Of a stretch of 64,000 nt of DNA, positions 55,380 to 63,414 are shown piece after piece. The stretch covers positions 2,976,001 to 3,040,000 of the forward strand of contig CM000154.2 in NCBI GenBank assembly GCA_000004695.1. The letters are read 5' to 3'. Source of the DNA: Dictyostelium discoideum. Its lineage: Eukaryota. The notes below the pieces were generated by a model. The model was given only the letters and a program-made list of their open reading frames with translations. It was not told the DNA's origin and did no database searches. How positions within the stretch are numbered: position 1 is the first letter of the stretch; each line of letters starts with the position of its first letter. Both the position numbers and the translations under genes were made by a program.

Positions 55380-55856
55380 GAATTGGGTTAAAAAAAATTA
55401 TTTCAAAAAAAAAAAAAAAAAAAAATTTTAAAAAATTCAAATTTCAAAAAAAAAATCAAATTTCCAAAAAAAATTAATTTAAATTAAATTAAATTAAAAA
55501 AACCGGTTGTTCACCTGCTTTTTAAAAAAAAAAAAGGGGTTTTTTCCCCAATTTTCAAAGGGGGGGGGGAAAAAAAAGGCCAATTTTTTTTTTAAAAAAA
55601 TTAATTAATTTAATTTTTTTTTTTTTCAAAAAAAAGGGGGGTTTATTTTTTTTTTAAATAAAATTTTTTTTTTTTTTTTTTAAAGGGCCCAAAAAATTTT
55701 TTTTTTTTTTGGCCCCCAAGGGGAAAAATTTTTTTTTTAAGGGGTTTTTGGTTTAACCCGGGGGAGGCCCCCTTTTTTTAATTTTAAATTTTAAAAAAAA
55801 AAAAATTTTTTTTGAAAAAAAAAAAAAAAAAAAAAAGGTTTTTTTTTTTTCCCCCA

Positions 55857-55870
<14 letters not shown>
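55380..55870. other. Second low-quality or artefactual G/C-homopolymer patch (RasGEF 5' flank)
   Basis: GGGGGGGGGG, GGCCCCC, CCCGGGGGAGGCCCCC and AACCGGTTG lie within poly-A/T. It is the same kind of sequence as 24420-25430. Confidence 0.45.
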
Positions 55871-55895
<25 letters not shown>

Positions 55896-56157
55896 ATTTT
55901 AAAAAAAATTATATTAATCCTTATTAATAATATATTATTATTATTATTTTAAAATTTCTTTTTTTTTTTCTTCAAATAAAATTATAATTAATAAATAAAT
56001 AAAACAAACAAATAAATAAAATAAAATAAAATAAAATAAAATAAAATAAAATAAAATAAAATAAAATAATATAAAATAAATAAAATAAATTATAAAATAA
56101 ATTAAATAAAATAAAATTAAATAAAATAAACACATAATAAAAAAAAAAAAAAAAATT

Positions 56158-57702
56158 ATGGAAAAATTATTTTTTAAAGTTTGGAAAAATAATATTTTAA
56201 GGAAATTAATATTTTCATATATTATAGAAATTAATAAAAGAAAAATTGGTAGAATTTTAAAATATTATGAAATTAAATCAGCAGATATTTTATGTGATAA
56301 TGGATATTGGTTATTATTAAAAGATATAGTTCAACAGAGAGAGATTAGAAGAAAACAAAAAGAAGAGGGTAAATCATGTTATCCAGGCCCATCAATAGAG
56401 ATAAAGATAACAGAATCATCATTAATTAAAATTTGTAAAGGTGTTTCAAATATTGATTTATTTAAATCACTTTATTATCAATTAGAAAAGGAGTTTAAAT
56501 ATCATGATTTCATGTTTATAGATTATGCAGCCGATAGCGGTTCATTGGAGGTGGTGAAATTCCTTCATGAAAAGGGCCACAGTGCGTCATTCGTTGCCTT
56601 GGATAACGCAAGTTGGAGAGGGCATTTCGATATAATTAAATTCCTAATCCACAACAGACATGAGCAATGCTCGAAAGGAGCCATCGACCAGGCCGCTGCC
56701 GAGGGTAATTTACCAATAGTGAAATATCTATCAAAGTACACACAATCTGGGTGTTCAAAGTCTGCTATTAATCTAGCATGCAAAAACGGGCATTTAGAAA
56801 TGGTGAAATACCTATTCGAGAATAGAAAAGAGGGTGCGTCAGCCAAGGCATTGGATTATTGCTGCGAGTTTGGTAGATTTGAAATATTTAAATATCTATT
56901 TGAAAACGATGTTTTGTCATTAAACAATATGGGCACTACCTCATTCAGCAGTCAAAGTGAGTCACAAAATAACAATGGTCATAATAAACAGTATATCACA
57001 GTTGACGGCTTGAAATTGGCTGTCAAAAGTGGTAATTTGCAATTGGTTAAATATATGATTGATAATAAAATTTTCATTAGATCAGATTGTAACATTGCCT
57101 ATCAACAAAGTCTATCCCAAAGAAATTGTGAAATCATTAAATTATTAGAACAATTCTCTAGTGAAAGAATTACAACAGTTGAATTCATAATGTATAATAT
57201 AAAAGCAATTGAAAATAAATTATTAAATAATATAATTTACTTATTTGACAAGTATCCTAAACAAGTACTATCTTCAACTCAATATAAAGAATTAATTTAT
57301 AAATCTGTACAATCTTCTGATTTCCAAATATTTCAATTCATTTTCCAAAATGCAATTAAAAAATATCCAACTTTTTTACAACAAACTTTAAAGAATTCCT
57401 CTTCTTCCTCTTCCTCTTCCTCCTCATCTTCTTCAAAAGGTGAAAAAAATCATTTAAATGAAAAATATTTATTTATGTTATCTATAAGATCTTTAAATTT
57501 AGAAATTGTTCAATTTATTTATAATCAATATCATATTCCTTCAAATTCAATTAATATTCAATTATTATTATCTTTTTCAATTTATAATTTTAATATACCA
57601 ATAACTGATTTTTTAATTTCAAACTTTTTTATAAATAATTTTTATTTAATTCAAAATGATCATCAAGATGATCATGATTTAGATAGTATTAATAATATGT
57701 AT

Positions 57703-57766
<64 letters not shown>

Positions 57767-58225
57767 GTTATAAAAATAGTAAATTAAATTTAGATAATTA
57801 TTTATTATCACCAATAATAAGATCAAATTCAAAAATTTATAATTATTTATTAAATTGTAAAAATAATATTTTACCACAATTACTATTACAACAAATTCAA
57901 CAACCACAACCACAACCACAACCACAATCACAACCTCAATTATCAAATAATAATAATAATAATAATACTAAAAAACAAAGTGTATTATTTATTAATAATG
58001 AAAATTATAAATTATTGTATAAATCAAATATTTCATCAATTTATGATGAAATTCATATATCAAACCCAAAATATTTTAAAATATTTTTAACCCATTTAAC
58101 TGATAGTATGATGTCGGAATTTGATGATTCTTTTAATCACATCTCAAGAGGAAATCATATTAGATTTGTTGATGCTTTTTCAGGTGATCATCATCTTTTA
58201 TATGGTTTTAATAATAATAATAAAT

Positions 58226-58230
<5 letters not shown>
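56158..58230 (+). CDS. Ankyrin-repeat protein (690 aa) whose N-terminal F-W-K motif relates it to the 32595/37032 family
   Basis: The N-terminus is MEKLFFKVWKNNILRKLIFSYII. There are at least 5 ankyrin repeats (GSLEVVKFLHEKGH, GHFDIIKFLIHNRH, GNLPIVKYLSKY, GHLEMVKYLFENRK, GNLQLVKYMIDNK). It also has poly-Ser, poly-Asn and a (PQ)n stretch. The repeat-encoding block 56540-57130 is about 42% GC, against about 22% elsewhere in the gene. Confidence 0.65.
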
Positions 58231-58657: not shown

Positions 58658-59131
58658 ATGGCAACAAGTGAAGATGATAAAGATAACAGTTATAAAAAAA
58701 TTAAATGTACAATTCATCCAAATAAAAAAATAAAACTTTTATGTTCAGATTGCAATTTAATGCCATGTTGTATTGAATGTATTTTAGATGGTGAACATAT
58801 TTCACATAAATATCGAAAGTTAGAATCAGTAGATTTTTCATTAATTAATAGTAAATTTAAAAATGATATATGTCCAAAAATAAAAGAAAAAATTGAAAAT
58901 AATAAAATAATATTAAAAGAATCTTATAATAAATTCCATGAAATTCAATCACAATTTTATAATAATAATAATTTAATAAAAAATGAAATTGATAAAATTC
59001 GAGAAACCATTTCAAATATTGAAACTGATTTTCAAAATGAATTAAAAGAAACCTTTGATAATAATAAAATAATAAATACAAAAATAACATCATCAATAAA
59101 TCAAGATAATGAATTACTCACAAACATTGAA

Positions 59132-59195
<64 letters not shown>

Positions 59196-59431
59196 GTTCA
59201 AATTGTATTGATGCAAATGAAACCATTAAACGATATCAACAATTATTAATATTAATAAATAATAATAAAAAAAATTCAAATAAATTAAAAGAATATAATA
59301 ATCAAGTGATTACATTTGAAAATTCAACACTTGATGAAATTAAAAATTATTTAAAATTAATATATTCTTTTAAAAATAATGATAATAATGATAATAAAAG
59401 TAATAATGAATTTGATAATGATGGAGATTAA
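58658..59431 (+). CDS. B-box zinc finger plus coiled-coil protein (257 aa), paralog 1 of the B-box/FNIP cluster, with no FNIP repeats
   Basis: CTIHPNKKIKLLCSDCNLMPCCIECILDGEHISH is a B-box-type Cys/His finger. It is followed by a coiled-coil-like region with a poly-Asn tract, and it ends with a stop at 59431. Confidence 0.6.
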
Positions 59432-59689
59432 TATATGTATATATATGTTAATTATTTTCATTGTGTTTTCCTCAATTCAAAAATAAATAAAAGTAAAAAT
59501 CAGATTGTAACAAAGACACCATAAATAGTAATTTTTTATTTTATTTTTTGTTTTTTTTTATTTTTTTTATTTTTCTTTTTTTTTTTTTATTTCCATGCAT
59601 TTTGGGTCACTTTTTTTATTTTTACACACATTTCGCTTTTTTTTTAATTTCTCTTTTTTTTTTTTTTTTTAGTATTAAGTTTATTACCA

Positions 59690-60449
59690 ATGACAACAAG
59701 TAATAATAATAATAATAACAATAATAATAATAAAAATAAAATTCATAAAAATATTAAATGTACAATACATTCAAATAAAAAAATAAAACTTTTATGTTTA
59801 GATTGTAATTTAATGCCATGTTGTATTGACTGTATTGCAGATGGTGAACATAATACACATAAATATAGAAAGTTAGAATCAAAAGATCTTTCATTAATTG
59901 ATAATAATTTAAAAAATAATGTATATCCAAAAATAAAAGAAACAATTGAAAATAATAAAATAATATTAAAAGAATCAAATAAAAAATTCAATGAAATTCA
60001 ATCACAATTTTATAATAATAATAATTTTATAAAAAATGAAATTAATAAAATTCAAAATATAATTTCAAATTTTAAAAGTGATATTGAAAAACAATCAAAA
60101 GAAATATATAATAATAATATAATAATAAATACAACAATAACATCATCAATAAAACAAGATAATCAAATACTCACAAACATTGAAAATAATAATAATGAAT
60201 CCAACCCAAATGATATAAATGAAATAATTAAACAATTTCAACAATCATTAATAATATTAAATAACAACAATTCAAATAAATTAAAAGAATACGATTGTAA
60301 AATGGTTCAATTCGATCATTCAACAATTGATCTTATTAAAAATTATTTAAAATTAATTTATTCTATAAAAGATAATTGTAATAATCAATTTTATTACGAT
60401 GAAGATTTTCAATTTATATGTGAACCAGAAGGTAATAATGAGCCGGTCG

Positions 60450-60535
<86 letters not shown>

Positions 60536-62059
60536 CTGCAACAACAACAACAACAACCAACACCAATTTCACCAACAACAACAACAACAACAGCAACAAC
60601 AACAACAACAACAGCAACAGCAACTACAACATCAACATCACCAAATAATAAAAAAAGAAAGAATCCAGATTCTGATGATTATGATGGTAGTGATGGTTAT
60701 GATGGTCATGATTCTGATGATGGTCATGATTCTGATGATGACTCTGATGATGATGATAATAATAATGATAAAAATGATGACAATAATAATAATAATAATA
60801 AAAATAAAAATGGACCGAATAAAAAATATAGACCACGTGTATTAAGTAAAATAACAAGTAATGTTAAAACGTTGCATATACATTGTTTAAGACAAGAATT
60901 AGAGATTGGTTGTATACCTAATACTATTGAAACCATCTTTTTAAAAGGTGGATACAATCAAAGATTACTCACTGGTATAATACCAGAAGGTGTTAAAAAG
61001 TTACAATTTGGTAGAATGAATCAAGAATTAATTATTGGATCAATTCCTAAATCAGTGACGTGTGTAGCTTTAAAAGGTGGATTCAGTCAAAAATTAACAC
61101 CAGGTTTAATACCAGAAACTGTACTAGACTTTAAAATTGGTGATACCAATCAAGTTTTAATGGTTGGATCAATTCCAAATAGTGTAAAGAGACTCTATCT
61201 ATTCCGTAAATTCAACCGAAAATTAAGACCTGGTATAATTCCAAAAGGTGTTACAGAGTTGTATTTAGGTAATAAGAATGATGTATTAAAGGTTGGTTCA
61301 ATTCCAAATACTGTAAAGACTATCTATTTAGAGAAGGATTTCAACCAAAAGTTAATACCTGGCATATTACCAAACGATGGTTTTAAAGAACTACATATTG
61401 GTCCCATAGAATTAAAAGTATTAGAGATTGGTTCAATTCCTAAAACTGTAAAGAGGGTCTATTTGAATAGTAAATATCCACAAAAATTTAAACCAGGTAT
61501 ATTACCAGAAGGTGTTCAAGAATTACATTTAAGCGGAAAGAATCAACCCTTAATGATTGGTTCCATTCCAAAAACTCTAAAGAGTATTTATTTGGAAAAA
61601 GGATTCAAACAAGCATTACCACCTGGTATAATAACTGAAGGTGTAGAAAACCTATATTTACGTTCTATAGGTAAGGTTCAAATTGGTTCAATTCCTAATA
61701 CTGTAACAAGTGTCCATATATTGAAAGAGTTTAATCAAACATTAAAACCTGGTGTTTTACCAATAAGCGTTAAACATTTACATCTATATGATTTCAAATC
61801 AACATTAACTATTCATTCAATTCCTAATACTGTGGATAATGTATATTTAAATGATGGATTCAGTCAAAAAATAATGCCTGGTATATTACCAATAGGTGTT
61901 AAATCTTTACATTTAGGTGATATAAAAAAAGAAATAACCATCGAATCAATCCCCTTCACTTTAGAGACTATAAATATATATAGAGGTTTTAAACATCCAA
62001 TTGAACCATTCATTTCAAAAAATATAAAAATTGTCAATCACTTAAAGAGACTTAACTAA
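59690..62059 (+). CDS. B-box zinc finger plus FNIP-repeat protein (789 aa), paralog 2
   Basis: It has the same B-box (CTIHSNKKIKLLCLDCNLMPCCIDCIADGEHNTH). It then has polyQ (CAA)n, a Thr/Ala-rich stretch and an Asp-rich stretch. After that come 17 or more ~22-aa FNIP repeats (..IGSIPKSVTCVALKGGFSQKLTPGLIPE.., ..VGSIPNTVKTIYLEKDFNQKLIPGILP..). Confidence 0.7.
60462..60540. repeat. (CAA)n polyglutamine-coding microsatellite
   Basis: About 26 CAA units. Confidence 0.8.
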
Positions 62060-62085
62060 AATATTATTTTTAAACTATTTTTTTT

Positions 62086-62261
62086 ATTTTATACTACAAC
62101 TACAACATCAATACCAACATCACCAAATAATAAAAAGAGAAAGAATCCAGATTCTGACGATTATGATGGTCATGATTCTGATCATGATCATGATCAGGAT
62201 TATGATAGTCATGATTCTGATCATGATCACGATTCTGATGATGATTCTGATGATGATGATG

Positions 62262-62357
<96 letters not shown>

Positions 62358-63125
62358 GTGAAACCATCTTTTTAAAAGGTGGATACAATAAAAGATTACT
62401 GATACCAGAGGGTGCTAAAAAGTTACAATTTAATAGAATGAGTTGGGAATTAATTATTGGATCAATTCCTAAATCAGTGACGTGTGTAGCTTTAAAAGGT
62501 GGATTCAGTCAAAAATTAACACCAGGTCTAATTCCAGAAACTGTATTAGACTTTAAAATTGGTGATACCAATCAAGTTTTAATGGTTGGATCAATTCCAA
62601 ATAGTGTAAAGAGACTCTATCTATTCCGTAAATTCAACCGAAAATTAAGACCTGGTATAATTCCAAAAGGTGTTACAGAGTTGTATTTAGGTAATAAGAA
62701 TGATGTATTAAAGGTTGGTTCAATTCCAAATACTGTAAATACTATCTATTTAAAGGGGAATTTCAATCAAAAGTTAATACCTGGCATATTACCAAACGAT
62801 GGTTTCAAAGAACTACATATTGGTCCCATAGAATTAAAAGTATTAGAGATTGGTTCAATTCCTAAAACTGTAAAGAGTGTATTTTAATAGTAGAAATATA
62901 CAAAAAATTAAGCCAGGTATATTACCAATAGGTGTTAAATCATTACATTTAGGTGACATAAAACAAGAAATACCCATCGAATCAATCCCCTTCACTTTAG
63001 AGACTATAAATATATATATATAGGTTTTAAACATCCAATTGAACCATTCATTTCAAAAAATATAAAAATAGTTAATCACTTAAAGAGACTTAACTAAAAT
63101 ATTATTTATAAACTATTTTTTTTAT
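62086..63125 (+). pseudogene. Truncated tandem duplicate of the 3' ~1.5 kb of the 59690..62059 B-box/FNIP gene
   Basis: The copy starts immediately after the parent 3' flank. 62086-62260 corresponds to parent ~60590-60790 (TTTPTSPNNKKRKNPDSDDYDG..). 62340-62885 is near-identical to parent ~60930-61470 (ORF 62438..62887 is a frameshifted FNIP block). 62890-63110 is near-identical to parent ~61870-62090, including the stop and 3' UTR. It carries internal deletions and a new (AAT)n at 62262-62355. It has no start codon and no B-box. Confidence 0.6.
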
Positions 63126-63129
63126 TTCT

Positions 63130-63185
<56 letters not shown>

Positions 63186-63378: not shown

Positions 63379-63414
<36 letters not shown>

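Follow-up and report, generated by a model that had tools for sequence, protein, structure and literature searches.

Immediately behind an intact B-box/FNIP gene on chromosome 5 of Dictyostelium discoideum lies a damaged second version of the 3' 1.48 kb of that gene, which we regard as the probable product of a genuine head-to-tail partial duplication at the DNA level, followed by decay. Judged on its sequence, this copy is a non-functional relic that would at most form 3' untranslated sequence of the parent gene's transcript. It was found within a window of 64,000 nucleotides, the whole stretch of DNA that was analyzed, to which all positions given here refer unless stated otherwise. Proteins encoded in it are identical to AX4 DDB_G0289603, DDB_G0289605, and mitochondrial EF-Tu, which identifies the window as AX4-type chromosome 5 of D. 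discoideum. A first-pass annotation, made from the letters of the sequence, had already described a tandem partial duplicate of the 3' half of an FNIP gene at 62086-63125. The repeat is indeed at this place and far above chance by BLASTN and global alignment, it lies on the same strand as its parent, the neighboring B-box/FNIP gene, and its limits need only be moved to 62093-63130. The features of the locus, all on the forward strand, are as follows.

56158-58230, + strand: ankyrin-repeat open reading frame (ORF).
58658-59431, + strand: gene A, an intact ORF of 257 aa with a B-box and a coiled coil, which duplicates the N-terminal half of the parent only.
59690-62059, + strand: parent gene, B-box/FNIP, an intact ORF of 789 aa (from the ORF list).
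60609-62092, + strand: source segment in the parent, running from the last part of the poly-Thr linker to 33 nt of 3' flank beyond the stop codon (global and block alignments).
62092/62093, + strand: duplication junction, at which the parent 3' flank ...TTTTTTTTATTTTAT is directly joined to ACTACAACTACAACATCA (poly-Thr codons).
62093-63130, + strand: the copy, a head-to-tail duplicate of the parent's last ~1.48 kb (BLASTN, global alignment).
62093-62261, + strand: hinge part of the copy, with the end of the poly-Thr tract, a KKRK motif, and an acidic Asp/His/Ser hinge; 90.5% identity to the parent.
62262-62357, + strand: AAT microsatellite, a perfect (AAT)31-32 that reads as poly-Asn in frame.
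62350-62911, + strand: FNIP block 1 of the copy, equivalent to parent 60919-61491; 95.5% identity.
62911/62912, + strand: scar of a 384-nt (128-codon) in-register deletion, by which three FNIP double units (parent 61492-61875) were lost.
62912-63097, + strand: FNIP block 2 of the copy with C-terminal tail and stop-codon homologue, equivalent to parent 61876-62059; 95.7% identity.
63098-63130, + strand: copied 3' flank, the parent's 33 nt, with 31 of 32 positions identical and one 1-nt indel.
63134-63183, + strand: A50 homopolymer just past the duplicated unit; A37 in the AX2 assembly.
63504 onwards, + strand: DDB_G0289641, the next B-box/FNIP gene after the copy.

The parent gene, from which introns are absent, encodes a B-box zinc finger, a coiled-coil region, polyQ and poly-Thr tracts, an acidic hinge, ~9 FNIP double units, and a C-terminal tail. 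Pfam recognizes both of its domains (FNIP, E=7.3e-70, 231 bits, 10 stretches; zf-B_box, E=1.7e-6). The polyQ tract is a (CAA)28 run at 60452-60535, the FNIP double units recur with a period of 129 nt, and the stop codon is a TAA at 62057-62059. The linker of polyQ, polyT, and acidic residues that the parent carries is missing in the closest paralogues retrieved (P0001, P0069), and the paralogous loci (L001-L003) are non-syntenic and at most ~77% identical. No domain family is more abundant in Dictyostelium genomes than that of the FNIP repeats, which belong to the leucine-rich repeat (LRR) type; it counts 419 proteins in D. giganteum and 557 Dictyostelium sequences detected by HMM, and truncated relatives are common. 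A literature search on the DDB_G identifiers of the locus returned no match.

The match between copy and parent is co-linear and on the same strand, with the copy beginning 33 nt past the parent's stop codon. BLASTN aligns 62350-62951 with 60919-61531 (92.7%, E=0), 62854-63123 with 61816-62085 (89.7%, 6e-98), and 62097-62314 with 60615-60811 (80.7%, 1e-39). The left edge of the source segment is uncertain by ~6 nt as it falls within an (ACA/GCA)n tract, and at the other end homology stops at 63130, the point corresponding to the junction in the parent. Calculated with gaps excluded, the block identities listed above show that the near identity ascribed to the pair does not hold throughout; the longest exact tract measures 193 nt, with 61125-61317 equal to 62547-62739. 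Two strings singled out earlier as identical each occur exactly twice, at 61040/62462 and 62042/63080. The microsatellite, initially counted as (AAT)29, has 31-32 perfect units, with 32.0 copies at 100% according to TRF and 31 units at 62264-62356 by regular expression.

As the first-pass annotation conceded, a repeat of this kind could equally be an artefact of assembly, namely an expansion or collapse in a repetitive region. For comparison we used GCA_054883475.1 (contig CM142511.1), an independent de novo Nanopore and Illumina assembly that most likely represents AX2-214; the assembly method of the set to which it belongs has been described (PMC12745789). Its corresponding region was fetched via the spliced 1371-aa RasGEF protein rebuilt from the window. 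Over 59578-63133 this assembly is 100% identical to the window, including parent, junction, copy, and both microsatellites. Across 23 kb the two sequences differ in 171 alignment columns, which are restricted to intergenic homopolymers and to the stretches 44.0-44.5 kb (17 columns) and 55.0-56.0 kb (121 columns); because they differ elsewhere, the assemblies are independent. AX2 and AX4 both descend from the NC4 isolate, so that their agreement validates the structure and gives no date. The 121 differences accumulated in a low-quality stretch ~4 kb upstream could be held in favor of an artefact, but the base-for-base match in an independent long-read assembly refutes it as an explanation on equal terms, and a single locus duplicated by the assembler would not give the ~48 differing sites and several indels that separate copy from parent. 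We thus regard an artefact as practically discounted.

The upstream stretch itself has an unusual appearance, as intergenic bases between 55000 and 56000 (worst at ~55480-55960) are "stuttered," each apparently called 2-10 times (e.g., GGGGTTTTTTCCCCAATTTTCAAAGGGGGGGGGGAAAAAAAAGGCC), where the AX2 assembly reads normal AT-rich sequence (55.4-55.95 kb). It is probably a low-quality or gap-fill stretch of the reference-type sequence. Homopolymer lengths also vary, with A50 in the window against A37 in AX2 at 63134-63183 and a T-run at 63381-63413 that is 7 shorter in AX2, and these differences may reflect either real length polymorphism or sequencing error.

The copy has accumulated lesions of several kinds, not all of which had been recognized. 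Its hinge shows in-frame length changes of +6 and +21 nt, among them a local tandem duplication of 39 nt (62159-62233) that partly accounts for a real difference reported earlier in this region (HDSDHDHDQDYDSHD against SDGYDGHDSDDGHD). A deletion of about 100 nt had been proposed for the hinge; a lesion is present there, but it consists of a replacement, in which the AAT run stands in for parent ~60775-60918, which encodes the last part of the hinge plus the initial half FNIP unit, with ~107-144 nt replaced. The second proposed deletion, of about 400 nt, is also present and measures exactly 384 nt. Its crossover falls within a ~25-nt window holding a 12-nt identity, GGTATATTACCA, common to both repeat units. 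The three units concerned are 63-75% identical to their neighbors in the parent and are hence older than the duplication, which means that they were lost by the copy and not gained by the parent. Three further lesions were absent from the first description: a 9-nt in-frame deletion at 62400, and two frameshifts. The first disabling lesion is a 2-nt deletion at 62877 (parent GG, 61455-61456), after which the shifted frame meets a TAA at 62885-62887 and then a TAG, and the second is an insertion of 2 nt (AT) at 63010-63011 that leads to a TAG at 63021-63023. The last ~31 codons are back in the original frame, up to the stop homologue at 63095-63097. Together with these lesions, ~48 point differences distinguish the copy from its parent.

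In its coding capacity the copy is a fragment. It stands one TAA and 11 sense codons behind the parent in the parent's frame, and 275 codons remain open after the parent's TAA until the stop at 62885; each of the five length changes ahead of the first frameshift is a multiple of 3. The translation of 62060-62884 matches the FNIP profile (Pfam PF05725) with 95.9 bits (cut-off 21), E=1.5e-27, in 2 stretches, and Pfam gives no B-box match (PF00643) in the copy's translation, from which a coiled coil is also absent. The ORF list contains no in-frame ATG, GTG, or TTG in the copy before 62438, and only 33 nt of parent flank lie upstream of it, so this is not an intact B-box/FNIP family gene. An intact in-frame coding sequence with an upstream B-box exon, which the first-pass annotation had named as the contrary evidence to look for, was sought and not found. 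With no start, no B-box, two frameshifts, and a premature stop, the copy is a disabled fragment, and the original pseudogene call stands. As it adjoins and is co-linear with an intact parent and includes non-coding flank, it would belong with the unprocessed pseudogenes.

Regarding its origin, the breakpoints are informative. The left one lies in the (ACA/GCA)n poly-Thr tract at ~60609-60615, and the right one 33 nt past the stop codon in AT-rich 3' flank, 3-5 nt before a long A-run. The junction, written across the breakpoint as TTTTATTTTAT/ACTACAAC, contains no filler and at most ~1 nt of microhomology, and the junction string is unique in the sequence, at 62083. When the flanks were compared by BLAST with the window and the fetched loci, low-complexity matches only were obtained. 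Since the breakpoint sequences offer no usable homology, the primary event was probably non-homologous and not an unequal crossing-over between FNIP repeats. The latter had been suggested at first, and recombination between repeats has a place in the history of the locus solely as a source of the secondary 384-nt deletion, the primary breakpoints being in the poly-Thr linker and the 3' flank.

Our favored reading is that of a single non-homologous event in which a point 33 nt past the stop codon would have been joined to the poly-Thr microsatellite of the same gene, possibly through replication template switching or end-joining between sister chromatids beside low-complexity tracts. The new copy would have been born without a promoter, start codon, B-box, or coiled coil. 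Its later decay is seen in the in-register loss of 384 nt with the three FNIP units, explained by repeat-mediated recombination or slippage, in the replacement of the boundary between hinge and first unit by the expanded (AAT)31-32, and in triplet-type length changes in the acidic hinge. The 9-nt deletion, the ~48 point differences, the two frameshifts, and the premature stop belong to the same decay.

A longer route to the same junction is conceivable, in which the whole gene was duplicated in tandem and a subsequent deletion, stretching from 33 nt beyond the parent's stop codon as far as the poly-Thr linker of the new gene, left the latter with its 3' half only. The family forms whole-gene tandem arrays elsewhere on chromosome 5 (L001), this route predicts the same junction as the one-step model, and the in-frame indels of the copy together with a dN/dS of 0.42 are compatible with a functional period. 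However, it needs two events in place of one, there is no intergenic or promoter trace between the parent flank and the copy, and the dN/dS does not depart significantly from what a functional gene and its neutral copy would be expected to give. We consider this two-step history rather unlikely, though it deserves to be kept in mind.

The copy also shares some features with a processed, 5'-truncated retrocopy of the parent mRNA inserted beside its source, in that it is truncated at the 5' end, while at its other end ~36 nt of 3' UTR lead into the A50 run (63134-63183). The parent is intronless, and so there is no intron by which a retrocopy could be told from a DNA copy. The A-run is not diagnostic either, given the 53 A/T runs of at least 20 nt in the 64-kb window, including an A25 that begins 3 nt past the stop of the ankyrin gene; it probably belongs to the gene's ancestral downstream flank rather than being the tail of a retrocopy. 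Against retroposition, the copy adjoins its own parent head-to-tail, on the same strand and 33 nt after the stop, and is not flanked by a target-site duplication, the best shared word being a non-flanking 7-mer. Classification as a processed pseudogene was rejected on the same grounds, with the A50 present, no target-site duplication, and the parent adjacent, and we view a retrocopy as extremely improbable. A search of the vicinity for tRNA genes, as marks of TRE retrotransposon targeting, found none.

Gene A adds a further element to the locus, for the full-length gene is flanked by two complementary half-copies of similar age, gene A for the N-terminal half and the copy for the C-terminal half. 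Gene A, which is called as a gene in the AX2 annotation, has 86.5% nucleotide identity to the parent, with dS 0.117, dN 0.158, and dN/dS 1.36. Its homology stops at parent ~60420-60425, ~185 nt before the point at which the copy starts, and these ~185 nt are almost entirely polyQ/polyT microsatellite. This complementarity, along with the similar dS values of 0.117 (gene A/parent) and 0.103 (copy/parent), could indicate that an older paralogue was interrupted in its polyQ/polyT linker by a full-length duplicate nested within it (59432-62092), leaving gene A and the copy as its two halves, or, equivalently, that a single replication event with two template switches produced both. Conversely, independent events may have struck the linker microsatellites as a shared fragile site, the dS values derive from only 12-18 synonymous differences, and the ~220 nt between the end of the A-homology and the parent's start codon have no homologue upstream of gene A or elsewhere in the sampled sequences. 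Extension of the gene A homology into the polyQ/polyT linker was not significant, as 86 of 500 shuffles scored as high, and the sequence upstream of gene A scored 69 against that upstream of the parent, not above shuffles (57 +/- 8); only the ~40 nt before the ATG look related. A linked origin is therefore quite unlikely in our estimation. The wider proposition that the locus is a snapshot of domain-array growth or gene fission, or else a paralogue (gene A plus copy) split by a nested self-duplicate, appears improbable as well.

The AX2 annotation places parent and copy in one gene, with a 1061-aa product over 59690-63023 (L007 11031-14364). When all GT-AG intron pairs were enumerated, one solution gave 1061 aa, with introns at 62033-62137 and 62870-62912. 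The former measures 105 nt, has a weak GTCAAT donor, and cuts away the final 8 codons of the parent together with its stop and the flank; the latter measures 43 nt and excises precisely the frameshift with the premature stop. In both cases the supposed intron is made up of sequence with homology to coding DNA of the parent. Dictyostelium introns usually measure ~100-150 nt, and 43 nt is far below this range. The model terminates at the TAG that arose from the +2 slip, so that the conserved C-terminal tail is missing from it. It is thus probably an annotation error, to go by the sequence of its two introns, in which a gene predictor bridged the lesions.

A functional C-terminal extension, in which the copy would serve as exons of the parent according to the AX2 model or be reached by read-through of the TAA, could draw on this gene call (59690-63023, 1061 aa) and on the 275 open codons that follow the parent stop in the same frame. 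It depends, however, on two unlikely introns of 105 nt and 43 nt, and the in-frame relation is expected by chance in 1 of 3 cases, which leaves it very unlikely. Should stop loss, read-through, or cryptic splicing occur, the protein would gain a second acidic/poly-Asn linker and ~4-5 FNIP double units.

Empty results of exact look-ups and homology searches had led to the parent, gene A, a 149-aa ORF, the read-through ORF, and the reconstructed 1061-aa model being read as "not annotated"; this was rejected, as AX2 gene calls exist for these loci and the protein collection is incomplete, with even the conserved neighboring RasGEF gene lacking a D. discoideum match. Searches for proteins identical to the RasGEF, ankyrin, and gene A products gave the AX2 contig only.

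The duplication had initially been described as very recent, which its divergence contradicts. The Nei-Gojobori comparison of copy and parent, resting on 17.8 synonymous and 29.2 non-synonymous differences, gives dS 0.103, dN 0.043, and dN/dS 0.42; at the nucleotide level the two diverge by 4.5-9.5%. For calibration, three neighboring genes of the window were set against their counterparts in a wild D. discoideum isolate (GCA_054859385.1), with dS of 0.065, 0.068, and 0.128, and EF-Tu was compared with two D. citrinum assemblies, with dS of 0.14-0.17. The dS of the copy is about that of the wild isolate and not far below the D. citrinum value, so its age would be about that of the divergence among D. 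discoideum lineages. It is accordingly not a recent, strain-level segmental duplication, with a dS of 0.10 against 0.065-0.128 between strains.

This estimate may be affected by later exchange between the two sequences. The 193-nt identical run has P=0.0005 under random placement of differences (run-length permutation test), which points to one or more subsequent exchanges with the parent by gene conversion; the dS would then represent a minimum age. Multi-nucleotide differences are clustered on the borders of the tract, as at 62432-62446, where 6 fall within 15 nt. The in-frame indels and the dN/dS of 0.42, which rests on small counts, would also fit past coding constraint on the copy; however, this argument is weakened by the triplet repeats and the 129-nt period, which bias indels toward in-frame sizes.

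One of the calibration genes is itself unexpectedly diverged. The flavin monooxygenase-like DDB_G0289605 (40817-42382 against L010 11005-12582) has dS 0.128 and dN 0.063 between AX4 and the wild isolate, with products of 521 and 525 aa, and the neighboring genes are also fairly diverged.

Compared with known systems, the copy is an ordinary case of a partial tandem duplicate in decay, within a family that is very large and turns over rapidly. It resembles duplicated (unprocessed) pseudogenes from partial tandem duplication in being head-to-tail, on the same strand, partial, and without promoter or start, and in bearing frameshifts, a premature stop, deletions, and a microsatellite expansion; it is unlike them in standing in the parent's frame right after the stop, opposite a complementary duplicate of the N-terminal half. 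With the B-box/FNIP (IP22, FGxxFN-type LRR) family, which includes DDB_G0289641 and DDB_G0289849 on chromosome 5, it shares bona fide FNIP repeats, and the parent has the B-box, coiled coil, and FNIP array of the family and paralogous neighbors. The copy itself, without the B-box/coiled-coil half and without an intact ORF, is a fragment and not a member gene. At the tgrB/C locus, intact genes are similarly mixed with truncated copies from local duplication, recombination, and deletion (PMC12745789), but the sole other assembly compared at the present locus (AX2) is identical.

The locus thus provides a case of turnover in the largest Dictyostelium repeat family, with a non-homologous partial duplication followed by deletion, microsatellite expansion, frameshifts, and probable gene conversion. 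It illustrates that a seemingly fresh duplicate in a very AT-rich genome can equal the divergence of D. discoideum lineages in age. Its scientific value is modest, and its practical value lies mainly in annotation, concerning the 1061-aa AX2 model and the poor sequence at 55.0-56.0 kb. The next gene downstream, DDB_G0289641 (63504-64000 and beyond; L007 14824-16443), is modeled in two ways, with a product of 513 aa in the AX4 annotation and one of 427 aa in that of AX2. At its N-terminus, the DNA of DDB_G0289641 is ~90% identical to several genes of the DDB_G0289849 cluster, a larger B-box/FNIP array ~230 kb away.
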